Assembly: GCA_009602735.1 (NCBI GenBank)
Contig: WELA01000730.1
Span: 151,583 to 198,425, forward strand
Origin: Mesotaenium endlicherianum
Taxonomy: Eukaryota
Direction of reading: 5' to 3'
DNA length: 46,843 nucleotides
The notes under the pieces are model-generated. The model was not told the DNA's origin. It ran no database searches and was given only the letters and a program-made list of their open reading frames with translations. Below, piece by piece: positions 14,725-46,843 of the stretch (positions are counted from its first letter, which is position 1; each line of letters starts with the position of its first letter). The position numbers and the translations under genes were made by a program.

Positions 14725-15350
14725 GCTCGCTATCCCTCTTTCGTAAACCCCCCTATCCTTCTTCTCGTAACCCCCCGCCATCCCTCTTTTCGTCCGCCAT
14801 ACCCCCCTATCCTTTTTTCGTGATTCCCCCTATCCCTCTTCTCGTAACCCCCGCCATCCCTCTTTTCGTCCGCCATCACTCTTTTTGTACCCCCCTATCC
14901 CTCTTTTTGTAACCCCCCCTATTCCTCTTTTCGTAACCTCCGCCATCCCTCTTTTCGTCCACCATCTCTCTTTTCGTACCCCCCAAACCCACTTTTCGTA
15001 ACTCTCGCCATCCCTCTTTTCGTCCGCCATCCCTCTTTTCGTACCCTGCTATCCCTTTTTTCATAAGTCCTGGAGCCTACTATCCCTCTTTTCGTTACCC
15101 CCCCTATATCCCTCTTTTCATAACCCCCGCCATTCCTCTTTACGTCCGCTATCCCTCTTTTCCTACCCCCGGGCCCCCTATCCATCTTTTCGTAACCCCC
15201 GGCATCCCTCTTTTCCTCTGCCATCCGTCTTTTGGTACCCTGCTATTCCTTTTTCGTAACCTCTGGTATCTTCCAACGAAACCCCCGCCATCCCTCTTTT
15301 AGTACCCCTGCCTATCCCTTCTCTCGGCCACCCGGCGTTCCCCTCTTCGT
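14725..15350. repeat. Degenerate ~19-24 bp minisatellite, core ATCCCTCTTTTCGT(AACCCCC/CCGCC)
   Basis: More than 20 visible copies; strongly pyrimidine-rich + strand. Confidence 0.9.
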
Positions 15351-21785: not shown

Positions 21786-22733
21786 TGTGACGTTTCTGCT
21801 TTTCGAGAGGATCTTTTCCTCGGTCTTCAAGGAATATTTAATTGAAGTGGAAAGAAAATCTACATACTTGTGCAAATTGACAAATCCTCGAGAAAGCGAA
21901 AATGAAAATTAACGTAAACTGTGTGCTTGTGAGAGTTGCACTCACAATGACTCTACAGGTATTTATACTTGCACACTGTGAGGCACTGGAGTGCTTCGAG
22001 TCACCACCTAGGGCACTGGTTCATGTCAACGAAATCAGGCAAAAGGGTACGACCCATTTCGGCTGAATGCTCAAAACGCGCCGTTTGGCCGTTTGGAGAC
22101 TTTTTGACGGTTTCCGAAAAACCGTTTCGCGCCAAACGGGCGTTTTCGCGTTCTCCCGACTTTCCAAGAAGTTGCGACTGTTCGCGGAGTCGCGTACACA
22201 TGCTTTCGTCATGAACCGGTAGTTTAAAAAGCTACTTTGGCCAATCGGTTAGGTGTGAACGCTTCACTGACAAGTCGCGTGTTCGAATCCGCTCGGATGC
22301 AAAGCGACTTTGCATATTTCGTTTCGTCTGACTCTTACGGCTATTTGTTTGTGTTAATGATACGGCTGTTTGTTCGTATTAACGACTGGTCGTAAATTCA
22401 AAATTTGTGACTGAGCATTATTCGAAATAATGACAATCAAAATAACTTAATCAAACAATGATTGATTAAGTCATCATCTCATAATTTAATCAAAGTAACT
22501 TTATGAATAATTATGTCATACTTTTGCGAAGTAGTCAAATTACGTTACGACGCTTTTTGCAATAGAATCTCGGTCGTTTCGCCAATCGACTGGGAATTAA
22601 TCGGCACACGCGTGTGACGAATAATTGAATGTGATGCAATCATTTATCAAATAATGTATGATAAACAGTATAACGTATTTTAGGAAATTTGGGAAAATGT
22701 CCAAAATACGCCTAAAAAGCTCAAATCGTTACA
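21786..22733 (-). repeat. Family B 3' LTR (~948 bp)
   Basis: TGTGACG...CGTTACA on +, homologous to 27989-28978; adjacent PPT ctcctcccccttaaaa at 22734-22749. Confidence 0.9.
22231..22315 (+). promoter_or_regulatory. tRNA-like Pol III type-2 promoter (A box, B box) plus hairpin, inside the family B LTR
   Basis: TGGCCAATCGG (22238-22248), GTTCGAATCC (22281-22290), ATGCAAAG-cga-CTTTGCAT (22297-22315). Confidence 0.6.
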
Positions 22734-22874
22734 CTCCTCCCCCCTTAAAAGAACTTAACGTCCTCGTTAAGCGTACGTCTTTCAAGTTTTAAATGTGTCA
22801 ATATTAGCCTTGGCTAGCGGAAAGCACTGGTGAGCGATTGGACTACGCATCATGACAGTGACGGAAAAGAGCGA

Positions 22875-25800: not shown

Positions 25801-26834
25801 TTCATTTCGTTCATCTCCAACGGGCTTAGGCGATAAATTGGTCGCCAAGTCGGTTGAGAATTGGGAAAGAGAGGGATTGTATGTCCAATACCCCTGTCAG
25901 GCGCAAGCCCGGCGGGTATTTCACTTGGAAACACTGATTTGTACTTTTGCAAAAGAGCAAAAAGTTCAGCTGTGAGGGTTTCCTCACGACCAGTAACGTC
26001 TATCATTGGCTCTTGCGTAAAGAGCGTAGTTGAAGTTGCTGGGGAATCGGGTCTTAGTAATCCAAAGAAAACATTTTGACCGTGGTTTGCCAAACGTCGA
26101 GCTTGCTTTATGGACAATAGAAGAGTCTTTGAAGGACTATCCAACGCCATAGCGGGCTTAAGGGACTAAAGGGTAAACTTCTTGGTCCCCTTGCGTACAA
26201 TGCATGTCTTTTGACTAAAGTCAAGCAATGCACTTGTTTGCGTAAGCCAATCATTACCAAAAACTGCGTCGATTCCATGCGGCAATTCAGTGACGTAGAA
26301 TTGTACGTGGCCGATGTATGACTGCACTTTTACTCGCAACTTAATCGATCCGATAATACAAACTAACAAGCCATCGCCAAGGCAAAGGGTCTCGTCCTTG
26401 AGTATTGGAAGCAACTTCATCCCTTGTGCAAAACGTGCACTAATGAAGCTTACTGATGCGCCTGAATCAATGACTGTGAAGCATGAACTGCCTGAAACTT
26501 TCGCGTCAAACGTCATGCTTAACCCCAAAGAAGCATTATGCATCACCAACAACGTCCTCGCCGTGAGAGGAATGTGGGAAATGTGGAGGTCCTTTTTCAA
26601 AATCCCATTTTGCATTGCTGTCCTTACGCGTAACCGAGTAATCGGGTTAGAGTACGCGCGAATATGTGTAAATGCACTAATATAAGTTGGTGCAAGACAC
26701 TTATGCATTTTCCTTAATCGAGATAAGTGTGCGTAACACTTGGCAAGGTTAGGATCATGCGGCTGGAAGTGCAAGAACATGGTATCATGGATGCACTCGA
26801 GTTCCTCAAACTCGTCAAAGCTCAACACTTGCAT
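22875..26834 (-). pseudogene. pol: Family B pol (protease, RT, RNase H, integrase, chromodomain) in frameshifted pieces
   Basis: [22 protein letters not shown] and YVDD; RH ASGVGIGAVL...TDH; INT SLDFV, SDRD, GQTER, VGPF; chromodomain WDVEEVL...IKWLDY. ORFs 26166-26834, 25275-26150, 25117-25434, 24388-25107, 22875-24254. Confidence 0.92.
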
Positions 26835-27769
26835 ACTAATATATTCCGAACGAAATATATCAATATCAGGTATGCCAGAGTGAACAAGAACCTTTGGTGC
26901 GAGCGCACAAACACCTAGAGTTTCCTACTCACTAAGTAGTGTTGGCAACAACTCAGAAGAAATTGGCACTTATCAAGTTAAATGCAATGTCAATCTTGAC
27001 ATGATTTGAGTGAGAGTTGTGATAAGCAGGGCAGTGTTCTTAACGTTTTCAAGCTCAAATCCATGTGAGAGGGGTGAGTCACAAATGGACGAGATAGAAC
27101 AGATGCAAAAGCATTGTGCCAAAGCAATAGAGAAAGGGAAACAATCCACAAACTCAAATGATAAGCGACAAAATCAACCCAATGTCAAAGAAACATGTCA
27201 AATCTGGTCAAAATGGGACCAAATACGGACGACAAGGTTTTGAATCCAGAAATTGTGCGCGCGAGTCAATTCTCGTAGAATGACAACAAGTGCGACAATG
27301 TCATGGAAGAGACCCGTGGGCAAAAATCCTTTGTGTATATCACAACACGCGCATAGCAACCAAGAACACAAGGTGGGTGGGATGGGTGGGGATGAGAAAG
27401 AAAGTCCCCTATGGACCCTTTTGGTGTGCAACGGTGCAAAAAGCCCCAAACGGGTGCAGATTTTGACTTAAATATGTGCAAGGGACTGAAGAAATAGGAA
27501 CCCTTCACCACAAAAGTCGAAATCGTCTGAAAAAGAAACAAGCGGCGTTGTTAGTAACGGCGAAAAAAGAAAGGTTCAATGGAAAAAACTCCAACAGCGC
27601 CTAGTTGGCCTAAGGGACCGTTGAGGTTGTCGCCGTGGCCAGCGGCAAGAGCGGCATCATTGCAGTTGCACCAACAACGGTTGCGTTGGCGCCGGCGTAA
27701 GGATTTTTCCGGAAATCCTAGGAAACGCTGGAAAATGGAGAAAAAATACCCCGTCAAAAGTGGCTACGA

Positions 27770-27893
27770 GAAGCGACCGTAGGTTCAGAGCAGAATTGGG
27801 ATGGGTGACCGTCCAGTTTGAAGAATTGCCCCAAACACATTTCTACGATAAGCGACCGTAGCCCAGGGCAGTACTGAGATGGGTGACCGTCCA
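27770..27893 (+). promoter_or_regulatory. Two 5S-rRNA-like internal control region copies in the family B leader
   Basis: TAAGC-N15-CAGTACT-GAGATGGGTGACC at 27849-27888 matches plant 5S TAAGC-N15-TAGTACT-AGGATGGGTGACC; a more diverged copy at 27770-27810. Confidence 0.65.
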
Positions 27894-27975
27894 ATACCAA
27901 AAATACCCCGAAATATGTTTTCCCAGAATGTATTCCAACCACTAAAAAAAAAATTCCTTGGAGAAACCGAGATTG

Positions 27976-27987
27976 GCTCCGATACCA
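27976..27987 (-). other. Primer binding site (tRNA-iMet) of family B
   Basis: TGGTATCGGAGC on the minus strand, 1 nt from the LTR end. Confidence 0.9.
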
Positions 27988-27988
27988 A

Positions 27989-28978
27989 TGTGACGTTTCT
28001 GCTTTTCGAGAGGATCTTTTCCTCGGTATTCAAGGAATATTTAATCGAAGTGGAAAGGAAATCTATATACTTGTGCAAATTGACAAATCCTCGAGAAAGC
28101 GAAAATGAAAACTAATAGAATTTGTGCTTGTGAAAGTTGCACTCACAATGACTCTTGCAAGTATATATACTTGCACAACGTGAGGCACTGGAGTGCTTTG
28201 AGTCACCACCTAGGGCACTGGTTCATGTTCAACGAAAAACGGTTGAATTGGACATAACCAAGTCGGCCTAATACTCCCACCGCGCCGTTTGGCCTTTAGG
28301 AGACTTTTCGACGGCTTCCAAAAAACCGTTATACGCCAAACGGGCGTTTTCGCGTTCGCGCGACTTTCTGAAAAGTCGCGATTGCTCGCGCGGTCGCGTA
28401 CGGATTAATTCGACATAAACCGGTAGGGATAGTAACGACTTTGGCCAATCGGTTAGGAGTGAACATTGTCAGCGAAAGGTCGCCGGTTCGAATCCGTCAA
28501 AATGCAAAGTAACTTTGCATATTATATTTCGTTTGACTTTACGACTATTTTCGGAACCGCGACGCGCTGACCGGGACGTCGCGGGACCGGTGGCTCCCTT
28601 GGGCCACAACTTGGTGTTTTCTTACGGGTTAGCGACATGTCGTTAACCGAAAACAATGACTGTTAATATCCGAAATAATGAAAATTATATCAACTTAATC
28701 AATCCGAGAATTATTACGTTATCATCTCATAATTAATCAAAGTAACTTTGTGAATAATAACGTCGTACGCTTGCGAAGTAGTCGAGTTACGTTACGACGC
28801 TTTTTGCAATAGTATCTCGGTCGTTTCGTCAATCGACCAAGAATTAATCGGCACACACGTGTAGCGAATAATTGAATATGATGCAATCATTTATCACATA
28901 ATACGATAAATAGTATAACGTACTTTAGGTAATTGGGAAAACGTTCCAAATACGCCTAAAATAGCTCGGATTGTTACA
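27989..28978 (-). repeat. Family B 5' LTR (~990 bp)
   Basis: TGTGACG...TGTTACA; homologous to 21786-22733 but visibly diverged. Confidence 0.9.
28434..28520 (+). promoter_or_regulatory. tRNA-like A/B box plus hairpin in the second family B LTR
   Basis: TGGCCAATCGG (28442-28452), GGTTCGAATCC (28485-28495), ATGCAAAG-taa-CTTTGCAT (28502-28520). Confidence 0.6.
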
Positions 28979-31262
28979 TAGGCGTCCGAAACGCTGTTTT
29001 GGGGACATCCTCTGGTGTGATTTGAATTCGATGATAGCCTTGGGCTAAGTCAAGCGAGGAGAACATGCATGCCCCCTGCAACGAATCAAACAAATCATCA
29101 ATGCATCAGTGCGAGGCAACGAGTAGCGGTTCTTGACCGTTATGTTGTTCAACGCACGATAATCAATGCACATTCTAAGCGTCCCATCTTTCTTTTGAAG
29201 AAATAGGATGAGGGCGACCAATGGAGAAGAGCTCGGATCAATCCATCCTTTCTCCAGCAAGTCGCTAATTTGGTCTTTCATTTCGTTCATCTCCAACGGG
29301 CTTAGGCGATAAATTGGTCGCCAAGTGGGTTGAGAATCGGGAAAGAGAGGGATTGTATGTCCAATACCCCTGTCAGGCGGAAGCCCGGCGGGTATTTCAC
29401 CTGGAAACACTGATTTGTACTTTTGCAAAAGAGCAGAAAGTTCAGCTGTGAGAGTCTCTTCATGACCAATCACGTCTAACATGGGCTCTTCCGTTAGTGG
29501 AAGTGACTGGAGAAGCAGGTCGCAGTAATCCAAAGAAAACATTTTGACCTCGTTTTGCCAAACGTCTAGCTTGCTTGATGGACAATAGAAGAGTCTTTGA
29601 AGGACTTTCTATGGTCATATCGGGCTTAAGAGACTGGAGAGTAATCTTCCTTGTCCCTTTGCGAACAATGCATGTCTTTTGACTAAAGTCAAGCAATGCA
29701 CTCGTTTGCGTTAGCCAATCATTACCAAAAATTGCGTCGATTCCATGCGGCAATTCAGTGACGTAGAATTGTACGTGGCCGATGTATGACTACACTTTTA
29801 GTCGTAACTTAATCGTTCCGAGAATACAAGCTAACGAGCCATCGCCAAGGCGAAGGGTCTCGTCCTTGAGTATTGGAAGCAACTTCATCCCTTGTGCAAA
29901 ACGTGCACTAATGAAGCTTACTGATGCGCCTGAATCAATGACTGTGAAGCATAAACGGCCTGAAACTTTCGCGTCAAACGTCATACTTAACCCCAAAGAA
30001 GCATTATGCATCACCAACAACGTCCTCGCCGTGAGAGGAATGTGGAAAATGTGGAGATTCTTTTTCAAAATCCCATTTTGCATTGCTGTCCTTGCGCGAA
30101 ACCGAGTAGTCGATTCAGAGTACGCGCGAATATGTGTAAATGCAGCAATATAAATTGGTGCAAGACACTTATGCATTTTCCGTAATCGAGATAAGTGTGC
30201 GCAACACTTGGCAAGGTTAGGATCATGCGGCTGGAAGTGCAAGAACATGTTATCATGGATGCACTCGAGTTCCGTAAACTCGTCAAAGCTCAACACTTGC
30301 ATATTAATATATTCCAAACGGAATATATCAATATCGGGTATGCCAGAGAGAACAAGAATCTTGGGTGTATGCAAACATACACCTAGAAGTTCTTGCTCAC
30401 TAAGTAGTGTTGTCAGTAGCTCAGAAGGAGGCGCAATGACTGGCTCCTGAGCTACGTCATCGGGACTATACCGCAAATCCTTTCTTGAAGGACACGTTTT
30501 AAAGGTATGTCCCTTTTTGCCACATGAAAAACACATACTTGGCGCCACCATGTGGGGACGAGTCTCGGTGTTATCAATCTTGCGAGGCTTTAGAGCATGT
30601 CCTTGTGGGTTGGCAATGTTTCCGCTTTTGGAAGGGTTATGCTGTTTCGGACGTCCCTTACGAGATGTATGAAAACCGGTATGAGGAGGACGTTTAGTGC
30701 AAACAGGCTGACGACGAGACTGTACGGCTGGCTCCTTTTGTTGTCTCGTCTCGCGAGCTACAGTGGACTTTGGGCGACCTTGAAATTCTTCAGGCGGGGA
30801 GGGTTTGTGGGTAGGCGTCGATGCCGAGACCTGCCGAGGGGTGGCAAGTGGGAGAGGCTGAAGAGTAACGTCGCCAGCGGTCCCAGATGTGCTAGCAACC
30901 CCCTGGACAGCCTGCAAGTATGAACGAATCGCGATGTTAATAACCATCTTGGAAACAAAGCGACTGTGCGCAATGAACGTGGCGAAAAAAGGGTTCAACG
31001 GAAAAAATTCCACAGCGCCTAGTTGGCCTGAGGGACCGTTGAGGTTGTCGCCGTGGCCAGCGGCAAGAGCGGCATCATTGCAGTTGCACCAACAACGGTT
31101 GCGTTGGCGCCGGCGTAAGGATTTTTCCGGAAATCCTAGGAAATGCCGAAAAATGGAGAAAAAATTTCCCGTCAAAAGTGGCTACGAGAAGCGACTGTAG
31201 GTTCAGAGCAGAACTGGGATGGGTGACCGTCCAATTCTAAGAATTGCCCCAAACAGATTTCT
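28979..31262 (-). pseudogene. Family B copy 2: leader, partial gag (zinc knuckle), protease and RT N-terminus
   Basis: CFSCGKKGHTFKTC knuckle, [18 protein letters not shown]; homologous to 25511-26960 and 27555-27845; a third 5S-like box at 31188-31228. Confidence 0.88.
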
Positions 31263-32133: not shown

Positions 32134-32852
32134 TGTAATGAATCAGTATATTGGTAGATATAATAATCATTTAAATATAATAGTTAATTAAGTTCAGCCT
32201 GCTGAACTTTACGTAGTATGTAAGTCTGCTGGACTTTATATAGTTATCAGTTTAAGGACTCAGTCGGAAGCAGCAGGCTGAAGTCAACTTAAGTCAGCTT
32301 GCTGACACATTCTTTGACAGCCAGCTGACTTCCGTACTCGGTAGCAGCGAACTGCCTCGATATGCATCTAAGTGTGGTATGCTAGATAAATGGCAAGATG
32401 ACATTCCTATGATGGATGGCGATTCGGGATGATGGGAGATGGCGGTGGATTTGGTTAACCGAGGTCCTACCAACGTGGTTAACTCCCGGGTAGGTGGTGC
32501 CATCGCACTGGCCGTTGAACAGTAAACTCATTCCATGTACATATGCTAGGATTGCTCTCGAGTTCGGCATTCGGAAACGAGGCCAACTCTCTTGTACAGC
32601 TTACTTAGAGAAATCTGAATCCAAGGCGAGAAGCCATTGATACGCATTGTCTTCCAACCTTGCTTATGTACGAGTTTACAGATTGCATTATTGATGCTAG
32701 TTTACTTGCATTTGACTTACGAGTATTATTCACTGCTAGTGTGTTGTCCTTTGCCATTTAACCAGTTAACGGAAAATACCATAAAGATTACTTGCTGATA
32801 TAAAGATCTTTATTAATTGTTAATCGCCTATTTGGTAAGTCGATTCATTTCA
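32134..32852 (+). repeat. Family C 5' LTR (plus-strand copy, 719 bp)
   Basis: TGTAATGAATC...GATTCATTTCA terminal inverted repeat; PBS TGGTATCGGAGC at 32854-32865. Confidence 0.95.
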
Positions 32853-32886
32853 GTGGTATCGGAGCAGTTATCACAGTCTTCTTTGT

Positions 32887-34268
32887 ATGGTAAGGACAAG
32901 GTCTCAAACTAGCAACTCCCGAGACATGGAGAACCAGGATAACGAGAATGTCGAAAACCAGGCGAAAAGCCATGTAGCGGGAACCCGCACCTATTCTGAA
33001 GTAGTGGCAGATACTGCAGCTAGAAAGGCTGCAGATGTGGCAGCTGCTATTGCCGCAGTCGCAGCACAGCAAGCTGAGCAAGAGAGAGCCGGATTAGAGG
33101 CTGAACAATTAGCAAAGGCTGCTGAAGATACAGAAAGGAGGGAAGGACAGCCAGCTGACGAGCGCACGGTTGAAGAACTTATGGCATCCAGGGCCAATGT
33201 TCTTAACCCACCTCCTGCTGTACAACTCAATGTACCCCTAGGTCAAATACGTGACCGGCTGAATGCGGCAGGAATTGCTGCTGCAGGAGCGAGAGGGACT
33301 GTTGAGGACACTACTCAGCGAGTGGATGCCACTGCTGCTGCTGCATTTGCTAGACTTCCACCCCAGAGTGTAGACTTGGGAGCATTGTTCGTTCAAATGC
33401 AGTCGCAAATGGCGACCATGTATCAGTCCCAACAGGAGGACAAAAGAATCATAATGTCTCTACTGCGGGACAGAGACCAACTGGGTTCTCAAAGCACTGG
33501 TGGTGGTGGAAGAGGGCCTAGTAAGCCTAAGCCGAAACCTCCCCAGGACTATGATCCTGAGCGAAACAAGAAATATTTCCTGATCAATTTTCTCGTTGAT
33601 GTTGAGCAGTGGCTGGAGAACTATCCAAAGCTGCAAGATTACGCGAAGGTCAGGCACACCGGTGCGCTACTGAAAGGCAGTGCCGCAGACTGGTGGCAAT
33701 ACTAGAAAGGAGAGCGTAACGCTCAGAAACTCGGTGACCCTACGTGGGTAGTGTTTGTCGAGAAGTTGCATGAGAAGTTTGATGTCATCAACCAGCAGGA
33801 GAAAGCTATCTATGCAATGATCTCCTTGACACTGAAGCAGACCACTTCAGTTGCTGAGTTTGCTCAAAAGTTCCAAGAGAACATGATGAAACAGCTAGAC
33901 TTGCCAGAACGGTACAGGATAGCATACTTCAGGTATGGCTTGAAATACGAGGTCTCTGGTCATTTTGCTGAGAAGACGTATGAGAAATATGCTGACTTGA
34001 TCCAAGATGCTGATGCTTGGGATCAGCAGCAATTCAATTACAAGCGCCAGAGTAATGCTTTGGTATCTAAGGTTGTCAAAAAGCCCCACGGTTCCTACAA
34101 TGCAATTGAAGGAGACCAGGCTGAGGATGATCAGGGTGATGAATATGGGTATGAGTACAATGCTATGCAGTCTAGAGGGAGAGGTGGTTTCTCTCGAGGC
34201 GGCTATGGAAGAGGTGGTGGTAGGACTAAGCCGAGACCAGCCTCATCAAAATCAATTTGCTTCCATTG
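32887..34268 (+). pseudogene. gag: Family C gag with a premature TAG at 33703-33705, cut in the zinc knuckle by the next insertion
   Basis: Near-identical to gag at 40831-42309; ends ICFHC at the LTR junction. Confidence 0.92.
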
Positions 34269-34988
34269 TGAAATGAATCGACTTACCAAATAGGCGATTA
34301 ACAACTGATAAAGATCTTTATATCAGCAAGTAATCTTTATGGTATTTCCGTTAACTAGTTAAACGGCAAAGGACAAATCACTAGCAAGGAATAATACTCG
34401 TAAGTCAAATGCGAGTAAACTAGCATCAATGATGCAAGTCAGCAAAACTCATACATAAGCAAGGTTAGAAGACAGTGCGTATCAATGGCTTCTCGCCTTG
34501 GATTCAGAGTTCTCTCAGTAAGCTGTACAAGAGAGTTGGCCTCGTTTCCGAATGCCGAACTCGAGAGCAATGCCTAGCATATGTACATGGAATGAGTTTA
34601 CTGTTCAACGGTCAGTGCGATGGCACCGCCTACCCGGGAGTTAACCACGTTGGTAGGACCTCGGTTAACCAAATCCACCGCCATCTCCCATCATCCCGAA
34701 TAGCCATCCATCATAGGGATGTCATCTGGCTATTCATCTAGCATATCGCACTTAGATGCATATCAAGGCAGTTCGCTGCTACCGAGTACGGAAGTCAGCT
34801 GGCTGTCAAAGAATGGGTCAGCAAGCTGACTTATATGGACTTCAGCCTGCTGCTTTCGGCTGAGTCATTAAACTGATAATTATGTAAAGTCCAGCAGACT
34901 GACTATTAACTAAAGTTCAGCAGGCTGAACTTAATTAACTATTATATTTAAATGAATATTATATCCACTAATATACTGATTCATTACA
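34269..34988 (-). repeat. Family C 3' LTR (720 bp)
   Basis: Reverse complement of 32134-32852; PPT AAGTTGGAGGGAT adjacent at ~34989-35001. Confidence 0.95.
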
Positions 34989-35101
34989 ATCCCTCCAACT
35001 TAACTTGTTGTCGCCTCGACAACATTAAACTGCAGAAATTTTAAATAAGGGAACTGAACCTGACCAGCCTCCCTTACTGACTGCCTCTTCAGCGTGTCAC
35101 C

Positions 35102-36778
35102 TTAAGGGGTTGTTCCTGGGGCTTCAGAATCAGGAGACGGAGATCTGGACCTAGATCTGGACAGCCCTCTAGGTCTGTCAGCTGGCCTTCTAAAGAACCC
35201 TGTTTGCTCTAAAGTTGGCCCTCGAGGAGAACGGAGGATGGTGGCCTGCTCTTCAACCACTTGGGTGTTGATTCCCACATAGACAGGCATTCCAGTAGGA
35301 TGCTGAAATACATTGGCTAGAGGTACATGCCCCTGAGCGGAGGGGGAGGCTGGCATACCTCTGGCCCACCCGCGTGTCCCTCTTCTGGCACCCCTGTCCT
35401 CTGGGGATTTCTGTCTGTGTCTGCTGCCCAGTACAGTCAGATCAGCTTCTTCCCCTGCTTGGGCAGGTGGGCTGGGGGAGCGAGCGCGGGGTCCAGTTGT
35501 CGCCATAACGGGGATCACATTCCACACACCTGATCGTGGTTCTTTAGGAAGTGCCACTGCCTGTCCCTGGGTATCCTGAGTACCTGCTGCTGATGCTTCT
35601 CCTCTGCCTTGTTCTTCTTCCTCATCCTCCTCATCCTCCTCCTCGGAGAGAGTAGGGGTCTCGTCCACTAAGTCGTCCTGCTCCCTAGTAGACATGGAGT
35701 AGTCTACCGACCTCCCTTTCTTAGGGCGCGCTGGAGGTTGCTTGGCCTTCAGCCTACTGATATCTATCCGGCCTGCATTCTTTGCCCATTTGACAAAGGC
35801 ATGCTTTCCCTTAGAGAAGTACTCTCTTCCCCTCCTCCTATGTTCCTTGGTCTCTGCATTCATATTGCTCAGGCATCCATTCAGCCTGGGGTCCCAAGGG
35901 GCAATGTGAGGTGGTAGGATGAGATAGCCGTCTAGGCCATAGTGGAAGTCATCCGGTTGGGCTCGGTCACACTCCTGCTTCTTATTTGTGACGGTCATCC
36001 ACCTCCAGTCTGTTGGCTGCTGGTAGTACTGGGGTCCGTGCTCAGCCTTCCTCAGTTTACACGGGAACCAGTGGGGAGAGAACATCTGCTGTCCTGCTTC
36101 CCTGGCCAAGTACTCCCAGCTCCTTCTCTCAACTTCATTGTAAGCTGGCAGGAGTGTGAGGTAGAATACCGTATCCTTAAAGCTATCGGGCCGCATGCTC
36201 ACCATCCGGATGAGTCTCTGATCTCCCACTATTCCCGGTATGGGGACCGGCTTGTCCTCTGAATCATCTGCGAGATACCGGGCCTGCTCTGCTGTATAGC
36301 CCACCATCTTAGCATAATCTTCGTAAAGGACCACGCCGGTGTGTGTCTCGATGTACCTGTCCAGTGCTGTAGCTCCTTCCTTCTGTAGCAGTGTTGTCTG
36401 TTCCAGCCTGTTGATCTCCTGGGCTGCCAGCAATGCTTCCTTCAGGTTATCGAAGTTTTGGCCACCCACCACAGTATACCTGTAAGTGGCCAAGCTCTTC
36501 TGTCTGTCCGCTTCAATCTTTTTTCTTTTCTCCTCTTCTGCCGCTGCCGCTTCTTCTTGCTGTTTCTTCTGTCTCTCCTCCTCAGCCTTCCTGAGGTTTT
36601 CCGCTTCCTGATCCTTCTTCCTCTGTGCCTCTTCTGCCGCCTCTTGTTGTTTGCGGACCCTTTCTTGTTCTCTCCTGGTGAGGGACGTCGCCGCCAGCTC
36701 CTTCTGGTATTGCTCCATTGTCCTCCTGGCTTCTTCTGCCTTGCGCTTTCTGTCCTCCTTTTGTGTGGTGGGCGCCAT
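35102..36778 (-). CDS. Extra sense ORF (~558 aa from MAPTTQ) between pol and the 3' LTR; function unknown
   Basis: Long intact ORF in both tandem copies; charged coiled-coil N-terminus, aromatic-rich core, acidic and RS-rich tail; ATG at 36778 follows a TGCAG acceptor. Confidence 0.85.
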   Translation of the reverse strand: MAPTTQKEDRKRKAEEARRTMEQYQKELAATSLTRREQERVRKQQEAAEEAQRKKDQEAENLRKAEEERQKKQQEEAAAAEEEKRKKIEADRQKSLATYRYTVVGGQNFDNLKEALLAAQEINRLEQTTLLQKEGATALDRYIETHTGVVLYEDYAKMVGYTAEQARYLADDSEDKPVPIPGIVGDQRLIRMVSMRPDSFKDTVFYLTLLPAYNEVERRSWEYLAREAGQQMFSPHWFPCKLRKAEHGPQYYQQPTDWRWMTVTNKKQECDRAQPDDFHYGLDGYLILPPHIAPWDPRLNGCLSNMNAETKEHRRRGREYFSKGKHAFVKWAKNAGRIDISRLKAKQPPARPKKGRSVDYSMSTREQDDLVDETPTLSEEEDEEDEEEEQGRGEASAAGTQDTQGQAVALPKEPRSGVWNVIPVMATTGPRARSPSPPAQAGEEADLTVLGSRHRQKSPEDRGARRGTRGWARGMPASPSAQGHVPLANVFQHPTGMPVYVGINTQVVEEQATILRSPRGPTLEQTGFFRRPADRPRGLSRSRSRSPSPDSEAPGTTP

Positions 36779-37045
36779 CCTGCACATGTAACCAGGGCAC
36801 AAGTTAGTAGGATATGGACCTTTGTCATAGGGATTGCAGGAAGTATGTTAGTATTTAGTATAGTGGCTTCGCTGCTGTTTACCTTACAGGATGATTGCTA
36901 AAAGTTGACGTAGTTGCGATGCGCTACACATAAACGTATGAGTGTGTTTTTATCGCTCTCGCTCACTAACTGTCATATATTTTCCCCTCCAACTTAAATG
37001 GAGACAGGACCGCCTGTCACCTTCCCGTGTCAACTGAAATGACAG

Positions 37046-40000
37046 TTATGGAGGGACTCCAGCGGCCCGAAGGTGGAACCGTGTCAACGCCCCTTTGGCA
37101 TTGGTCAAGTGGTCCTTAAACTCCCAAGTGTCCCCAGAGGCATCGTAACCCTTCCATCGAATGAGGTATTTCATGACATATTTAGACGATCGACGGACCG
37201 AGCGAGCGTCTAAAATCTCATCGACCTCATATTCCTCAGGGTCGCCGTCCCGGACAGCGGGGACCGGTCCCGGTTGGACAGGGAACCGACCTGTGAACAG
37301 TGTATCACCTTTGATGTACGGTTCCAGGAAGGAGACATTAAAGACCGGGTGCCCCTTGTATTCAGCTGACATGTTCAGTTTGTAAGCATTCTGACCGACA
37401 CGACGGACCACCGAATATGGACCGACCCAGACAGGGCCAAGCTTTTTCTTGACCACACCAGGGAGGTACAGGTGCTGAGAATGCAGTTTGACTAAATCCC
37501 CCTTGGAAAATGTCAGTTCCCGACGGTGTTGATTAGCGTATTTTTGTTGGTTTTCTTGGGCCGTGTGCAAGTTTCGTTGGACTTCTGACAGGGTGTCAGC
37601 AAACTCCTGAGTTAACTGGAGGGAGACCGGGTTGTCAATCCCTTCAGGGTGAGTTAAAGATTCCCCTAGCACATCTAGAGGAGACTTAGGGACTCTACCC
37701 AGGCTGAGTTCAAAAGGAGTTTTGCCCGTTGACGCGTGCACCGCACTGTTGACCGCAAACTGAATTTGAGGCAACAGGTCATCCCAATTATCTTGTTTTT
37801 GGTTAATATATGCTCTCAGCACCTCCTGCAGAACTCGGTTAGTTCTTTCAGTCTGCCCATCAGTCTGAGGGTGGTTTGCTGTGCTGAGCAGCTGTTTGAC
37901 TCCCATTAACCCCATTAAAGCTCTCCAGAACTTAGAGGTGAATTTTGAGTCTCTGTCTGAGATGATATTAGAAGGGAGCCCATGTTGGCATACTACATGG
38001 TTGTAAAACTGTCTCGCTGTTTCGAGTGCAGTCACTTTGACAGTTGTGGGGATAAAAATGACCATTTTTGTCAGTTTATCCACGACTACCAGTATTGAAT
38101 CATGCCCGTTGGCAGTTCTTGGTAGTGAGACCACCCAGTCCATGGATATAGTTTCCCAGCGTCCCGCTGGGATGGGTAGCGGTTGCAAGAGACCTCCGGG
38201 TGGTGTGTGCCGAGACTTATTTCTCTGACACTGGTCACAGGACTTGACATATTTCAAGACCTCCCGGGGTAACCCCTCCCAATGATAATGTTTTGCCAGT
38301 TTGCCAACAGTTTTGGCCTGCCCCAAATGTCCACCCAGGAGACTGTCATGAGCTTGACTCAGTAAGAGAGACCTTATTTCCAAGTTATTAGGAATGACCA
38401 GCTTCAGCCTGCCTGAAGTGGTTTCAGTCACCCAGACCCCTCCCTTGAGCTTATACCCGAGTGCAGTAGCACGACACACACCAGTAGTGGGGCTGGGCTC
38501 AAATGTTGGGTCAGAAAGGTAGGCTTTCCTAAGTTGTTCAAGGAAGGACTTTTTCACCTTTAGTGAAGTGAGTGCACACAGGACTTTATCTACAGCATGC
38601 TGACTAAAGTTCCTTTCTTGCAAGTCAGGTCTTCTAGAGAGTGCATCAGCAGGATTCAACTTCCCTGGTTTGTAGTCGATCTGGACTTGGAACTGCTCCA
38701 GCATCTGGCTCCAGCGGTTCTCCCTCCTCGACAGCTTGGACTTCTTCTGAAAGTGGGTCAGAGCTAGATGATCTGTAATCACCTTAAAAGCTTTACCATG
38801 TAAGTATGCTCTCCACTGTTTGAGTACATGAATGATAGCTAGCAGCTCTTTATCATGCACTGAGTAATTAATCTCCGCTGGATTAAATTTCATAGACTCA
38901 TACAACACAGGATGCCACTCCTGCCGTACCTTACCATCCTTTGTGGTTTTGTCAGCAGGCTGCAACAAAATAGCACCCATGGCAAAATCAGAGGCATCAG
39001 TAACCACCTGCACCGGTTTGCTGGGGTCATACACGGCTAGCACTGGGGCAGAACAAAGGGCATCTTTAAGGGTCTGGAAGGCAGCCTGCTGCTCTTCCCC
39101 CCACACATACCCGATGTCTTTCTTAGTAAGGTCAGTCAGTTTACTGGCCTTTGTGGAATAATTCTCAATAAATCTCCTATAGTAGTTAGCCAACCCGAGG
39201 AAGGATCTAACTTCAGAGACAGACTGTGGTACTGGCCAGTCCCTTATGGTCTGGACTTTCTTAGGATCCACACTGATGCCCTCTTTACTGACAACGTGGC
39301 CTAAGAATTCAATACTTTCCTTAAAGAAATCACACTTGCTCATTTTAGCATACAAGTGATTTTTCCGCAGAGTGTCCAGCACTTTCTTTAAGTGTTCAGT
39401 GTGCTGAGCTTCATCTTTAGAGAAAATTAAAATATCATCCAGGAAAACTTGCACAAACTTATCCAAATAAGGTCTGAAAATGTCATTCATAGCACCCATA
39501 AAGGTAGCAGGAGCATTAGTCAGTCCAAATGGCATCACGTTGAACTCATAGTGTCCATAACGTGTGCGGAAAGCAGTCTTGTGTTCATCCCCCTCAGCAA
39601 TTCTGATTTGATGATAACCACTCTTGAGATCTATCTTACTGAACACCTTAGCGCCAGACAGGGTATCAAGCAAGTCCTCGATCCTGGGTAAAGCATACTT
39701 GTTCTTTACTGTAATTCTGTTCAGGGCTCTGTAATCCACACACATCCGCATACTGCCATCCTTTTTCTTAACAAATAGGATAGGTGCGCCGTACGGTGAT
39801 TTACTGGGAGAAATGTAACCATTTTCCTCCAGCTCTGCAATCTGTGTTTTCAACTCCTCGCTCTCCAAATAAGACAAGCCATAAGTGCGTTGCCAGGGTG
39901 GCTGGCTACCAGGTAATAGATCAATCCTATGATCTACTTCCCTTTTAGGGGGTAGTCCTGGAGGCATGTTAAACACATCAGTGTACTGAGCAACAATTTT

Positions 40001-40876
40001 TGCAGCAGTAGGGTGCTCCGGAGGGCTTACCTTTTTCTCAACCACTTCTTCAGGTTGAGGAGGTACCTCTCTTAGCAGCAGACAGAACATTCTGTCTTCC
40101 TTCTGGTTCCAGCTTTTGACGAACTCCATTGCATTCAGCAACTTGCATCCTTCTGGAAGCCTCTTCTTTTCCTTCATTTGCCATCCACACAGGACAAGAG
40201 GAAGAGCACTGGTGGGTGCCAAGTCAGTCTGCCCATCACTGGCTCCTCTCACTTTAACTGTACCTCTGCTCCAACACACTTCAGCTTGATGTCTATTAAG
40301 CCAGGACCTGCCTAGCACGAGATCATAAAAGCCAGTGTTGAGTACCTCAAATGTAAGCGTTTCAGTTAGAACTGCAATGCCAGAACCTAACTGGACCTCA
40401 ATAGGCTTGGTTATAACTCCTCCCGGGATACTTGAGGCATCTCCAAGGAATATTTTTCTATTCCCTTGGGTGACAGTAGGCAGCCTTAGCCGCTTAACTA
40501 AGTCCTTGTGAATAAAAGTATGTGACGCCCCTCCGTCAACAAATGCCCTCACCTTCCTACCTGCAATCATGCAATGCAGTAGGATAGGGGGGACTGTCTT
40601 TTCCTGACTTTCGCATTGTTCTCCTGACGTAGCAAAGAAATGTTGGACATCAGGTGGAACAAGAGCATCCAGAGTGTGCACTCTCTGGACGTCTATATTA
40701 CTGATGGTCTCCTTTATCTGTTTGTCAGGCATGCATAGTGAATCCAGTTCAGCAGGACCCATAATACCTGCTACGAGGGCAGCTAGTGACGACTCACTAT
40801 CTCTAGCATCCTCACAGTCAGTAGACTGGATTACTGACTGTTGCTGTCTTTTAAAGGCTGGTCTTTTCTCTCGACC
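37046..40876 (-). CDS. pol: Family C Pol polyprotein (PR-RT-RNase H-integrase-chromodomain); frame is open from 40876, first ATG at 40762
   Basis: [35 protein letters not shown] zinc finger, SMDWV, SDRD, GQTER, GPY; chromodomain YEVDEILD...YLIRWKGY...DTWE. Confidence 0.97.
40814..40855 (-). promoter_or_regulatory. -1 programmed ribosomal frameshift signal between gag and pol
   Basis: Slippery U_UUA_AAA (40855-40849), 7-nt spacer, perfect 10-bp stem ACAGUCAGUA/UACUGACUGU (40841-40814); pol is in the -1 frame. Confidence 0.8.
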
Positions 40877-42309
40877 TTAGGCAGGTGCTTGACCGGACAC
40901 TGTTCTCTGTAGTGGCCTTTCTGCTGACAATGGTAGCAAGTAGATTTTGCTGAGGCTGGTCTCGGCTTAGTCCTACCACCACCCCTTCCATAGCCACCTC
41001 GAGAGGGACCACCTCTACCTCTAGACTGAATAGCATTGTACTCATACTCATATTCATCACCCTGATTATCCTCAGCCTGGTCTCCTTCAACTGCATTGTA
41101 GGAACCGTGGGGCTTTTTGACAATCTTAGACACCAAAGCGTTACTCTGGCGCTTGTGATTGAACTGCTGCTGATCCCAGGCGTCAGCATCCTGGATCAAG
41201 TCAGCCAGTTTCTCATACTTTTTCTCAGCAAAATGACCAGAGACCTCGGATTTCAAGCCATACCTGAAGTATGCTATCCTATACCGTTCTGGCAAATCAG
41301 GCTGCTTCATCATGTTCTCTTGGAACTTTTGAGCAAACTCAGCAACTGAAGTGGTCTGCTTCAGTGTCAGGGAGATCATCGCATAGATAGCTTTCTCCTG
41401 CTGGTTGATGACATCAAACTTCTCATGCAACTTCTCGACAAACTCTACCCACGTAGGGTCACCGAGTTGCCGAGCCTTACGCTCTTCCTTCCAGTAAAGC
41501 CACCAGTCTGCGGCACTGCCTTTCAGTAGCGCACCGGTGTGCCTGACCTTCTCGTAATCTTGCAGTTCTGGGTAGTTCTCCAGCCACTGCTCAACATCCG
41601 CGAGAAACTTGATCAGGTAATATTTTCTGTTTCCCTCAGGATCATAGTCCTGGGGAGGTTTCGGCTTGGGCTTACTAGGCCCTCGGCCACCACCACTAGT
41701 GGTGTGAGACCCCAGTTGGTCTCTGTCCCGGAGTAGGGACATTATGATTCTTTTGTCCTCCTGCTGGGACTGATACATGGTCGCCATTTGCGACTGCATC
41801 TGAACGAACAATGCTCCCAAGTCTACATTTTGGGGTGGTAGATTAGCAAATGCAGCAGCAGCATTGGCATCTACTCGCTGAGTAGTGTCCTCAACAATCC
41901 CTCTTGCTCCTGCAGCAGCAATTCCTGCCGCATTCAGCCGGTCACGTATTTGACCTAGGGGTACATTGAGTTGTACGGCAGGAGGTGGGTTCAGAACATT
42001 GGCCCTTGATGCCATAAGTTCTTCAACAGTGCGCTCGTCAGCTGGCTGTCCTTCCCTCCTTTGTATATCTTCAGCGGCCTTTGCTACTTGTTCAGCTTCT
42101 AGTCTGGCTATCTCCTCCTCAGCTTGCTGAGCTGCGACTGAGGCAATAGCAGCTGCCTCATCTGCAGCCTCCCTAGCTGCAGTATCCGCTACTGCTTCCG
42201 AATAGGTACGGTTTCCCGCTACATGGCTTTCCGCCTGGTTTTCGACATTCTCGTTATCCTGGTTCTCCATGTCTCGGGAGTTGCTAGTTTGAGACCTTGT
42301 CCTTACCAT
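40831..42309 (-). CDS. gag: Family C Gag (492 aa)
   Basis: Retrotransposon capsid-like LKGSAADWW...FRYGLK, RGG box, [14 protein letters not shown] knuckle. Confidence 0.95.
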
Positions 42310-42330: not shown

Positions 42331-42342
42331 GCTCCGATACCA
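42331..42342 (-). other. Primer binding site (tRNA-iMet) of family C
   Basis: TGGTATCGGAGC on the minus strand. Confidence 0.92.
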
Positions 42343-42343
42343 C

Positions 42344-43089
42344 TGAAATGAATCGACTTACCAAATAGGCGATTAACAATTAATAAAGATCTTTATATCA
42401 GCAAGTAATCTTTATGGTATTTTCCGTTAACTGGTTAAACGGCAAAGGACAACACACTAGCAGTGAATAATACTCGTAAGTCAAATGCGAGTAAACTAGC
42501 ATCAATAATGCAAATCAGTAAACTCATACATAAGCAAGGTTAGAAGACAGTGCGTATCAATGGCTTCTCGCCTTGGATTCAGATCTCTCTCAGTAAGCTG
42601 TACAAGAGAGTTGGCCTCGTTTCCGAATGCCGAACTCGAGAGCAATGCCTAGCATATGTACATGGAATGAGTTTACTGTTCAACGGTCAGTGCGATGGCA
42701 CCGCCTACCCGGGAGTTAACCACGTTGGTAGGACCTCGGTTAACCAAATCCACCGCCATCTCCCATCATCCCGAATAGCCATCCATCATGGGGATGTCAT
42801 CTGGCCATTCATCTAGCAGGTGGTACTTAGATGCATATCAAGGCAGTTCGCTGCTACCGAGCACGGAAGTCAGCTGGCTGTCAAAGAATGTGTCAGCAAG
42901 CTGACTTAAGTTGACTTCAGCCTGCTGCTTTTGGCCGAGTCATTAAACTGATAATTATGTAAAGTCCAGCAGACTGATTATTAACTAAAGTTCAGCAGAC
43001 TGACTACTAACTAAAGTTCAGCAGGCTGAACTAAATTAACTATTATATTTAAATGAATATTATATCTACTAATATACTGATTCATTACA
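42344..43089 (-). repeat. Family C LTR shared by two tandem units (746 bp, with a ~26-bp internal duplication)
   Basis: PBS on one side and PPT (43090-43102) on the other; duplicated taactaaagttcagcag. Confidence 0.95.
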
Positions 43090-43202
43090 ATCCCTCCAAC
43101 TTAACTTGTTGTCGCCTCGACAACATTAAACTGCAAAAGCCTTAAATAAAGGAACTGACCCTGACCAGCCTCCCCTACTGACTGTCTTTTCAGCCTGTCA
43201 CC

Positions 43203-44879
43203 TTAAGGGGTTGTTCCTGGGGCTTCAGGATCAGGAGACGGAGATCTGGACCTAGATCTGGACAGCCCTCTAGGTCTGTCAGCTGGCCTTCTAAAGAACC
43301 CTGTTTGCTCTAAAGTTGGACCTCGAGGAGAACGAAGGATGGTAGCCTGCTCTTCAACCACTTGGGTGTTGATTCCCACATAGACAGGCATTCCAGTAGG
43401 ATGCTGAAATACATTGGCTAGAGGTACATGCCCCTGAGCGGAGGGGGAGGCTGGCATACCTCTGGCCCACCCGCGTGTCCCTCTTCTGGCACCCCTGTCC
43501 TCTGGGGATTTCTGTCTGTGTCTGCTGCCCAGTACAGTCAGATCAGCTTCTTCCCCTGCTTGGGCAGGTGGGCTGGGGGAGCGAGCGCGGGGTCCAGTTG
43601 TCGCCATAACGGGGATCACATTCCAAACACCTGATCGTGGTTCTTTAGGAAGCGCCCCTGCCTGTCCCTGGGTATCCTGAGTACCTGCTGCTGATGCTTC
43701 TCCTCTGCCTTGTTCTTCTTCCTCATCCTCCTCATCCTCCTCCTCGGAGAGAGTAGGGGTCTCGTCCACTAAGTCGTCCTGCTCCCTAGTAGACATGGAG
43801 TAGTCTACCGACCTCCCTTTCTTAGGGCGCGCTGGAGGTTGCTTGGCCTTCAGCCTACTGATATCTATCCGGCCTGCATTCTTTGCCCATTTGACAAAGG
43901 CATGCTTTCCCTTAGAGAAGTACTCTCTTCCCCTCCTCCTATGTTCCTTGGTCTCTGCATTCATATTGCTCAGGCATCCATTCAGCCTGGGGTCCCAAGG
44001 GGCAATGTGAGGTGGTAGGATGAGATAGCCGTCTAGGCCATAGTGGAAGTCATCCGGTTGGGCTCGGTCACACTCCTGCTTCTTATTTGTGACGGTCATC
44101 CACCTCCAGTCTGTTGGCTGCTGGTAGTACTGGGGTCCGTGCTCAGCCTTCCTCAGTTTACACGGGAACCAGTGGGGAGAGAACATCTGCTGTCCTGCTT
44201 CCCTGGCCAAGTACTCCCAGCTCCTTCTCTCAACTTCATTGTAAGCTGGCAGGAGTGTGAGGTAGAATACCGTATCCTTAAAGCTATCGGGCCGCATGCT
44301 CACCATCCGGATGAGTCTCTGATCTCCCACTATTCCCGGTATGGGGACCGGCTTGTCCTCTGAATCATCTGCGAGATACCGGGCCTGCTCTGCTGTATAG
44401 CCCACCATCTTAGCATAATCTTCGTAAAGGACCACGCCGGTGTGTGTCTCGATGTACCTGTCCAGTGCTGTAGCTCCTTCCTTCTGTAGCAGTGTTGTCT
44501 GTTCCAGCCTGTTGATCTCCTGGGCTGCCAGCAATGCTTCCTTCAGGTTATCGAAGTTTTGGCCACCCACCACAGTATACCTGTAAGTGGCCAAGCTCTT
44601 CTGTCTGTCCGCTTCAATCTTTTTTCTTTTCTCCTCTTCTGCCGCTGCCGCTTCTTCTTGCTGTTTCTTCTGTCTCTCCTCCTCAGCCTTCCTGAGGTTT
44701 TCCGCTTCCTGATCCTTCTTCCTCTGTGCCTCTTCTGCCGCCTCTTGTTGTTTGCGGACCCTTTCTTGTTCTCTCCTGGTGAGGGACGTCGCCGCCAGCT
44801 CCTTCTGGTATTGCTCCATTGTCCTCCTGGCTTCTTCTGCCTTGCGCTTTCTGTCCTCCTTTTGTGTGGTGGGCGCCAT
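43203..44879 (-). CDS. Extra ORF, second tandem copy
   Basis: Differs from 35102-36778 by 2 amino acids. Confidence 0.85.
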   Translation of the reverse strand: MAPTTQKEDRKRKAEEARRTMEQYQKELAATSLTRREQERVRKQQEAAEEAQRKKDQEAENLRKAEEERQKKQQEEAAAAEEEKRKKIEADRQKSLATYRYTVVGGQNFDNLKEALLAAQEINRLEQTTLLQKEGATALDRYIETHTGVVLYEDYAKMVGYTAEQARYLADDSEDKPVPIPGIVGDQRLIRMVSMRPDSFKDTVFYLTLLPAYNEVERRSWEYLAREAGQQMFSPHWFPCKLRKAEHGPQYYQQPTDWRWMTVTNKKQECDRAQPDDFHYGLDGYLILPPHIAPWDPRLNGCLSNMNAETKEHRRRGREYFSKGKHAFVKWAKNAGRIDISRLKAKQPPARPKKGRSVDYSMSTREQDDLVDETPTLSEEEDEEDEEEEQGRGEASAAGTQDTQGQAGALPKEPRSGVWNVIPVMATTGPRARSPSPPAQAGEEADLTVLGSRHRQKSPEDRGARRGTRGWARGMPASPSAQGHVPLANVFQHPTGMPVYVGINTQVVEEQATILRSPRGPTLEQTGFFRRPADRPRGLSRSRSRSPSPDPEAPGTTP

Positions 44880-45146
44880 CCTGCACATGTAACCAGGGCA
44901 CAAGTTAGTAGGATATGGACCTTTGTCATAGGGATTGCAGGAAGTATGTTAGTATTTAGTATAGTGGCTTCGCTGCTGTTTACCTTACAGGATGATTGCT
45001 AAAAGTTGACGTAGTTGCGATGCGCTACACATAAACGTATGAGTGTGTTTTTATCGCTCTCGCTCACTAACTGTCATATATTTTCCCCTCCAACTTAAAT
45101 GGAGACAGGACCGCCTGTCACCTTCCCGTGTCAACTGAAATGACAG

Positions 45147-46843
45147 TTATGGAGGGACTCCAGCGGCCCGAAGGTGGAACCGTGTCAACGCCCCTTTGGC
45201 ATTGGTCAAGTGGTCCTTAAACTCCCAAGTGTCCCCAGAGGCATCGTAACCCTTCCATCGAATGAGGTATTTCATGACATATTTAGACGATCGACGGACC
45301 GAGCGAGCGTCTAAAATCTCATCGACCTCATATTCCTCAGGGTCGCCGTCCCGGACAGCGGGGACCGGTCCCGGTTGGACAGGGAACCGACCTGTGAACA
45401 GTGTATCACCTTTGATGTACGGTTCCAGGAAGGAGACATTAAAGACCGGGTGCCCCTTGTATTCAGCTGACATGTTCAGTTTGTAAGCATTCTGACCGAC
45501 ACGACGGACCACCGAATATGGACCGACCCAGACAGGGCCAAGCTTTTTCTTGACCACACCAGGGAGGTACAGGTGCTGAGAATGCAGTTTGACTAAATCC
45601 CCCTTGGAAAATGTCAGTTCCCGACGGTGTTGATTAGCGTATTTTTGTTGGTTTTCTTGGGCCGTGTGCAAGTTTCGTTGGACTTCTGACAGGGTGTCAG
45701 CAAACTCCTGAGTTAACTGGAGGGAGACCGGGTTGTCAATCCCTTCAGGGTGAGTTAAAGATTCCCCTAGCACATCTAGAGGAGACTTAGGGACTCTACC
45801 CAGGCTGAGTTCAAAAGGAGTTTTGCCCGTTGACGCGTGCACCGCACTGTTGACCGCAAACTGAATTTGAGGCAACAGGTCATCCCAATTATCTTGTTTT
45901 TGGTTAATATATGCTCTCAGCACCTCCTGCAGAACTCGGTTAGTTCTTTCAGTCTGCCCATCAGTCTGAGGGTGGTTTGCTGTGCTGAGCAGCTGTTTGA
46001 CTCCCATTAACCCCATTAAAGCTCTCCAGAACTTAGAGGTGAATTTTGAGTCTCTGTCTGAGATGATATTAGAAGGGAGCCCATGTTGGCATACTACATG
46101 GTTGTAAAACTGTCTCGCTGTTTCGAGTGCAGTCACTTTGACAGTTGTGGGGATAAAAATGACCATTTTTGTCAGTTTATCCACGACTACCAGTATTGAA
46201 TCATGCCCGTTGGCAGTTCTTGGTAGTGAGACCACCCAGTCCATGGATATAGTTTCCCAGCGTCCCGCTGGGATGGGTAGCGGTTGCAAGAGACCTCCGG
46301 GTGGTGTGTGCCGAGACTTATTTCTCTGACACTGGTCACAGGACTTGACATATTTCAAGACCTCCCGGGGTAACCCCTCCCAATGATAATGTTTTGCCAG
46401 TTTGCCAACAGTTTTGGCCTGCCCCAAATGTCCACCCAGGAGACTGTCATGAGCTTGACTCAGTAAGAGAGACCTTATTTCCAAGTTATTAGGAATGACC
46501 AGCTTCAGCCTGCCTGAAGTGGTTTCAGTCACCCAGACCCCTCCCTTGAGCTTATACCCGAGTGCAGTAGCACGACACACACCAGTAGTGGGGCTGGGCT
46601 CAAATGTTGGGTCAGAAAGGTAGGCTTTCCTAAGTTGTTCAAGGAAGGACTTTTTCACCTTTAGTGAAGTGAGTGCACACAGGACTTTATCTACAGTATG
46701 CTGACTAAAGTTCCTTTCTTGCAAGTCAGGTCTTCTAGAGAGTGCATGAGCAGGATTCAACTTCCTCGGTTTGTAGTCGATTTGGACTTGGAACTGCTCC
46801 AGCATCTGGCTCCAGCGGTTCTCCCTCCTCGACAGCTTGGACT
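45147..46843 (-). CDS. pol: Family C pol, second tandem copy (end of RNase H, integrase, chromodomain); runs off the window
   Basis: Near-identical to 37046-38742, offset 8101 bp. Confidence 0.93.
   Translation of the reverse strand, partial: SKLSRRENRWSQMLEQFQVQIDYKPRKLNPAHALSRRPDLQERNFSQHTVDKVLCALTSLKVKKSFLEQLRKAYLSDPTFEPSPTTGVCRATALGYKLKGGVWVTETTSGRLKLVIPNNLEIRSLLLSQAHDSLLGGHLGQAKTVGKLAKHYHWEGLPREVLKYVKSCDQCQRNKSRHTPPGGLLQPLPIPAGRWETISMDWVVSLPRTANGHDSILVVVDKLTKMVIFIPTTVKVTALETARQFYNHVVCQHGLPSNIISDRDSKFTSKFWRALMGLMGVKQLLSTANHPQTDGQTERTNRVLQEVLRAYINQKQDNWDDLLPQIQFAVNSAVHASTGKTPFELSLGRVPKSPLDVLGESLTHPEGIDNPVSLQLTQEFADTLSEVQRNLHTAQENQQKYANQHRRELTFSKGDLVKLHSQHLYLPGVVKKKLGPVWVGPYSVVRRVGQNAYKLNMSAEYKGHPVFNVSFLEPYIKGDTLFTGRFPVQPGPVPAVRDGDPEEYEVDEILDARSVRRSSKYVMKYLIRWKGYDASGDTWEFKDHLTNAKGALTRFHLRAAGVPP

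Follow-up and report, generated by a model that had tools for sequence, protein, structure and literature searches.

The window, a stretch of 46,843 nucleotides from Mesotaenium endlicherianum (contig WELA01000730.1, positions 151,583 to 198,425), carries a Ty3/gypsy chromovirus with an additional sense gene, ORF3, between pol and the 3' LTR. We conclude that ORF3 is almost certainly a real gene under selection. It is preceded by an intron of its own and by a second polypurine tract (PPT), two features that go beyond the sequence-only reading of this DNA and that likely indicate how ORF3 is expressed. Extra sense ORFs were already known in chromoviruses; the ORF3 protein, its intron and the duplicated PPT appear to be new.

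The element lies on the minus strand, in two copies in tandem. The 3' LTR of the first copy (34269..34988; 720 nt, TG...CA) is 3.9% diverged from the middle LTR (42344..43089), which is common to both copies. The terminal PPT (34991..35003) lies 2 nt ahead of the 3' LTR and is preceded by a 3' untranslated segment (35004..35101) with predicted hairpins (34985-35110, z = -2.9, with equal stability in one of 200 shuffles). Reading upstream, ORF3 (35102..36778; 558 aa from Met4) is followed by a 103-nt intron (36780..36882), a putative leader exon or internal promoter (36883..36984) and the internal PPT (36985..36997), which is identical to the terminal PPT at 13 of 13 nt and lies 48 nt past the pol stop. 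The 258-nt spacer runs from pol to the longest ORF3 frame. Pol (37046..40762) encodes protease, RT, RNase H, integrase, an SH3 domain and a chromodomain, and its PR-RT-RH-IN order with a C-terminal chromodomain in the Pfam scan identifies a chromovirus. The Pfam Chromo domain spans pol aa 1178-1230 and has all three aromatic cage residues. The best RT-RH matches of pol reach about 59-60%. An intact sense ORF between the chromodomain-integrase and the PPT, as first read from the sequence, is thus borne out by the frame itself, the Pfam Chromo domain and the PPT with its 3' LTR.

Gag (40831..42309) encodes a Ty3 capsid and a CCHC motif and has at its end a slippery TTTAAAA (40849-40855), after which a stem-loop is predicted (z = -2.5, 1/200 shuffles). 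A -1 frameshift from gag into pol is likely at this site, and the element therefore looks intact. The primer-binding site (42331..42342) we take to be of the tRNA-Met type; together with the TG...CA LTRs and the PPT, it places the 8.8-kb element among Ty3/gypsy elements. The second copy contributes another ORF3 (43203..44879), with an intron (44881-44983) identical to the first, and the 3' part of pol (45147..46841), which is cut by the window end.

The two copies are identical over 3,039 nt (35557-38595). Their tandem arrangement may stem from recombination or from the assembly, and an exact 1995-nt duplication elsewhere in the window is a sign of assembly artefacts. That duplication (4199-8189), with an N at the join, lies in tandem in a GC-rich RCC1/ankyrin-type host gene and is likely an artefact itself. 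A tandem artefact would leave ORF3 unaffected; at least 20 sequencing runs, from seven studies and five organism labels, contain half of its words or more, and one of them may be the source sample. Near-identical ORF3 sequence (35102-37046) occurs under all five labels, with one substitution and one gap in 1475 nt in run X3. The labels may cover closely related organisms or mixed samples, or the element may have spread recently. Another copy of this family, the third in the window, consists of an LTR and a gag with a stop on the plus strand (32134-34269) and is broken inside gag exactly at the start of the LTR of the inverted tandem array, which looks like insertion of the array into a relative.

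The longest ATG frame of ORF3 (35102-36787) encodes 561 aa, and a start at Met4 gives 35102-36778 and 558 aa; no stop-free frame in 1000 shuffles exceeded 321 codons, against 561 in ORF3. Residues are numbered here from the upstream ATG. The protein consists of a charged helix (aa 8-105), a probable folded core (aa 106-345), a basic patch (aa 346-362), an acidic stretch (aa 363-402) and an RG/RS/SP-rich tail (aa 403-561). The motifs quoted in the sequence-only reading are all present, the NLS-like, RG and RS motifs being short enough to occur by chance, and a single GW motif is within chance. The K/E/R coiled coil described there looks instead like a single charged N-terminal helix. The segment is 78% E/K/R/Q/A with i,i+4 charge pairs at 25 of 94 positions and only 7 of 98 residues I/L/V/M/F, a composition that fits an ER/K single alpha-helix better than a coiled coil. 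Single-sequence AlphaFold was confident for a long N-terminal helix and nothing else (mean pLDDT 43). The core has F/W/Y at 27 and I/L/V/M at 47 of its 240 residues, as in a folded domain.

The place of ORF3 between pol and the 3' LTR could suggest an env-like product, either a membrane protein or one for cell-to-cell movement, and spliced expression, for which we present evidence below, is described for env-like ORFs as well (PMC7264820). The hydropathy scan found no hydrophobic segment that could serve as signal peptide or transmembrane anchor (best Kyte-Doolittle 19-mer 0.73), and the motif scan found zero N-x-S/T sequons for glycosylation and zero R-x-K/R-R sites for furin-type cleavage. 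Only three Cys lie past Met4. The env-like reading is largely refuted by these results and is very improbable, in agreement with the original view of ORF3 as a non-envelope protein.

Selection was first suggested by the tandem copies of ORF3, which differ at seven codons, five synonymously and two non-synonymously. That count is exact, though weak alone (p = 0.017-0.036), and all seven differences fall in codons 411-554. Contigs of four public runs were aligned over 35000-37100 at 80% likeness and gave 329 variant rows. Among the 40 best supported, 27 variants fall in ORF3, 19 synonymous and 8 non-synonymous, where 23-31% synonymous is expected (p = 1.6e-7 to 2.4e-5; rough omega 0.12-0.19). 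Counted from Met4 in the same 40 rows, 19 of 25 are synonymous, since two of the eight non-synonymous variants sit in the intron. The same test on pol, as a control, gave 16 synonymous variants of 28. The purifying selection hinted at by the tandem copies is supported by these counts.

Small indels point the same way: the seven rows comprise four compensating pairs, two intronic changes and one single base in a depth-2 contig. In a 1041-nt X12 contig the alignment runs through the acidic region at an offset of 12 nt, and among eight listed X1 contigs at 81-85% identity, four align gap-free and four have 2-7 gaps. The reading frame thus persists in diverged copies. Decayed copies of ORF3 also exist: among the best 15 of 33 deletion joints, 11 are deletions inside ORF3, seven of them frame-shifting, each in one contig. 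Five loose contig ends of 30 letters were translated; two from X12 are in frame (5/10 and 3/10 residues identical), which hints at more distant ORF3 relatives, two are open but unlike ORF3, and one has a stop. Run X1 alone gave 6086 contigs on 35000-37100, and the family therefore has many copies, contig depth not being read as copy number. The family is young and abundant, and ORF3 is kept in many of its copies under selection, as judged from the 40 best of the 329 variant rows.

No relative of ORF3 was found in any search. Whole ORF3 against 5.8 billion proteins, near lengths only, gave none among 7992 candidates, and phmmer with the core (261 aa) against 1.84 billion representatives gave none at E ≤ 0.001. 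Two ESM Atlas searches reached at best 0.86 and 0.90, sharing 110-119 of 256 features, which is chance level. Profile and sequence searches of Pfam, PHROGs, NCBIfam and PDB sequences produced no accepted match; weak matches to Borrelia_P83 and Obc1_C fell under the cut-off and were rejected. None of 81 pattern matches in metagenome contigs and none of 5 in viral contigs was confirmed. The fold predicted for the core was unusable (pLDDT 33), and Foldseek with this model, which is too poor to inform on the fold, returned nothing at E ≤ 0.001. The structure prediction and profile search of the core that had been proposed as a check thus identified neither fold nor family. An Rfam search of 34200-37150 gave one match at chance level. 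Tblastn of 16 related loci, which are distant (24-39% in integrase), found zero ORF3 homologues, and in the downstream DNA of 15 of these 16 most elements end soon past pol.

These searches bear on the possibility that ORF3 was captured, with promoter and 5'-UTR intron, from a host or another element and is now a passenger, the synonymous excess recording earlier selection. A short non-coding exon, an intron and then an ATG is a host-gene-like layout, and the duplicated PPT suggests a cassette added behind an older element end. However, selection is visible among young, near-identical copies, and the protein-database searches found zero cellular homologues. The composition of ORF3 also resembles that of pol rather than of the neighbouring host exon, both in GC3 (0.57, 0.49 and 0.89, respectively) and in CpG observed/expected (0.40, 0.40 and 0.93), and ORF3 is on these grounds a long-term resident of the element. 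The neighbouring host gene itself had one match, at 41%. The passenger explanation is improbable. The database searches and the GC3 and CpG values likewise give no sign of a transduced host gene, and the expectation that ORF3 would not prove a recognisable host gene fragment held.

A GT-AG intron of 103 nt (36780-36882; donor GTAAAC, acceptor CAG) ends 1 nt before the Met4 ATG. The 8.8-kb element contains two sense TACTAAC motifs, and both are intronic (36847-36853 and 36803-36809). A contig of run X1 has a precisely spliced joint (36778>36882; CT..AC ends on the plus strand). Among the best 15 of 33 joints, it is the deepest (473.5 versus 162.6 for the next and 57-87 for the other 13) and the only one with sense-strand GT..AG ends. 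Such ends arise in a random deletion at a probability of 0.0045 per register, so they alone are not decisive among 15 joints. The spliced joint was seen in a single contig from one run, and its short side is 20 letters long. Most simply, it would represent integrated copies made from spliced RNA, X1 being by our guess DNA.

Met4 is likely the true start of ORF3, because the intron ends just ahead of it. It has A at -3 and G at +4, and the two upstream ATGs in the leader have T at -3 and open short frames; one X12 contig alters the Met4 ATG. The upstream ATG that opens the longest frame thus lies in the intron, and this accounts for two indels and two apparent amino-acid changes at that place.

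The internal PPT coincides with a boundary among related elements. In four of the five contig runs (X1, X3, X4 and X12; n = 29 in X1), sister contigs match up to this tract and then diverge, leaving loose ends at 36981-36984. Beyond it the sister sequence, visible as 30-letter ends only, starts with TG and has a short motif in common with the element's post-pol spacer, where it stands at the start of the putative leader. Three related loci (L001, L003 and L010) have a purine tract and TG directly after pol. L003 also has a 365-aa antisense ORF about 1.2-2.3 kb downstream of the integrase match, probably outside that element. Possibly, then, the internal PPT marks the ancestral element end, and the ORF3 leader derives from the start of an LTR, which would give an internal promoter. 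Alternatively, the sister contigs could be diverged ORF3-bearing subfamilies with a conserved internal PPT. At 43129, one X3 contig has the same LTR and terminal PPT but differs 40 nt upstream, where it resembles the post-pol segment; it is possibly a same-LTR variant without ORF3.

RNA evidence comes from three polyA runs of the same species label, of which 6.9, 12.0 and 10.1 million records were read. LTR, gag and pol attracted 227, 333 and 200 reads, most with a likeness of 90-99% and roughly half overlapping the element only in part; only 14, 31 and 12 element reads were at least 99% alike. ORF3 had zero reads in all three runs (six bins, 35097-36890). This gives no support for expression. 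It is compatible with a silent young family and read-through from old copies, or with a strain that differs. No RNA run is among those listed as containing ORF3, and coverage in X3, whose status as RNA is a guess, was excluded as expression evidence. Three RNA reads of run X23 skip 159 nt at 38800-38958 with GT..AG ends on the plus strand, antisense to pol; this spliced transcript is probably host read-through of an old copy.

Taking intron, start and PPT together, we consider it very probable that ORF3 is expressed from a separate spliced mRNA, and we somewhat favor an internal promoter over env-type splicing. The ORF3 mRNA would start at a promoter in the ~100 nt past the duplicated PPT, perhaps left over from the start of an ancestral LTR. 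The intron would be removed efficiently from this short capped mRNA and mostly retained in full-length RNA, as the small part of the depth that belongs to the intron-less form suggests. The folded core and the basic and RG/RS-rich tails would then act on nucleic acid, and ORF3 could work much as caulimovirus P6 or foamy virus Tas/Bet do, by transactivation or by antagonising silencing. That ORF3 is a nuclear regulator is about an even bet, and we put similar weight on the whole proposal of a separately expressed, spliced, soluble nuclear regulator acting on the element's own transcription or RNA. A nuclear location and an anti-silencing or RNA-processing activity are suggested by short motifs only.

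Env-like expression of ORF3 from the 5' LTR leader, with a cytoplasmic particle or RNP-granule scaffold as the product and the internal PPT as a plus-strand primer only, is possible, though unlikely. Intron-less integrated copies would need a PBS-bearing RNA, so that LTR-initiated RNA would sometimes be spliced here, and an acceptor-like TTTTAG lies 15 nt upstream of the intron donor. The long charged helix and disordered tails would suit a scaffold, and in foamy viruses a central PPT is identical to the 3' PPT (PMC6669543). In contrast, the RNA reads include zero leader-to-ORF3 joints, in data where ORF3 itself has zero reads, and ORF3 has a basic patch and acidic and RS tails. Such patches and tails are more usual in nuclear proteins.

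The additional sense and antisense ORFs of plant LTR retrotransposons, of no known function, have been reviewed by Vicient and Casacuberta (PMC7264820). Neumann et al. report sense 3' eORFs in 18% of 782 Tekay elements; their eORF table gives none for the algal Chlamyvir (44 elements), Tcn1, Galadriel, Reina or CRM, and their account limits the aromatic-cage chromodomain to non-seed plants (PMC6317226). The aromatic cage and tRNA PBS of our element fit non-seed-plant elements other than Tcn1 (PMC6317226). The cage, the named RT relatives of pol and a neighbouring methyltransferase-bearing element like that of PMC5890265 would by themselves suggest a green alga as the probable host. ORF3 falls under the eORF-3'F definition (at least 250 codons, sense, separate from pol, before the 3' LTR) and resembles eORF-3'F and aORF-3S in position, sense, length above 250 codons and lineage-specific orphan status (PMC6317226, PMC7264820). 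It differs in lacking a transmembrane domain and, in the Pfam scans, any match to the CDD domains given for eORFs (PMC6317226).

Analogues in layout lie outside the chromoviruses. CaMV P6/TAV is the product of the last gene past RT, whose separate monocistronic RNA starts at a promoter inside a 106-bp spacer, and is a regulator and silencing suppressor (PMC5902531). ORF3 is like it in layout only, and CaMV is a pararetrovirus rather than an LTR element. The foamy virus accessory genes Tas/Bet lie before the 3' LTR on an internal promoter, and a second PPT equals the 3' PPT (PMC6669543). The 3' accessory gene and duplicated PPT are again a likeness of layout, whereas foamy viruses are retroviruses with env and their central PPT is inside pol (PMC6669543). 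ORF3 showed no homology to P6/TAV or Tas/Bet in Pfam, PDB sequences or the 1.84 billion representatives. Gene23 of maize Grande lies in the 3' internal region with its own promoter and a nuclear product (PMC7264820), but it is an antisense gene of a non-chromovirus, and ORF3 is a sense gene of a chromovirus. Bdelloid elements share a non-envelope accessory gene in the 3' internal region; their non-env ORF3s are recognisable enzymes or TM/CC proteins (PMC5408684), unlike the orphan described here. These and a 2026 atlas of Arabidopsis TE products (PMC13547354) depict such accessory genes as diverse. In the mainly open-access literature, we found no description of a chromovirus with an extra ORF, a private 5'-UTR intron and a duplicated PPT or internal promoter.

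The window contains further mobile DNA. On the plus strand, a gag-like/protease ORF precedes a frame that contains a C5 DNA methyltransferase (17162-20535; PF00145, E = 1e-15; TIGR00675), with no RT identified after it; the element resembles the Dnmt3-carrying Gypsy elements reported from Klebsormidium (PMC5890265). A different chromovirus family is present at 21786-31262 in two degenerate copies, which appear to be nested. An intron-less 516-aa ORF on the minus strand (11803-13353), with a weak match to the uracil-DNA glycosylase superfamily (E = 0.03), is possibly virus- or element-derived, and a degenerate tandem repeat array with units of ~65-120 nt lies at 14723-15320.

Extra ORFs are common in LTR retrotransposons, but for hardly any of them is it known how they are expressed or what they do. 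The intron of ORF3 is defined, its start is likely and ~100 nt are proposed as its promoter, so that its expression and effect are directly testable. As a selected orphan protein in a many-copy family, ORF3 could have a new activity in counter-silencing or RNA regulation. The duplicated PPT may be a trace of the way in which elements gain accessory genes of this kind. We suggest only tentatively that an algal chromovirus became a "complex" retroelement, in which an old LTR start, as internal promoter behind a retained PPT, would drive a spliced regulatory or de-silencing accessory gene. If true, this would be a convergence on the layout of foamy viruses and caulimoviruses, with a new protein family.
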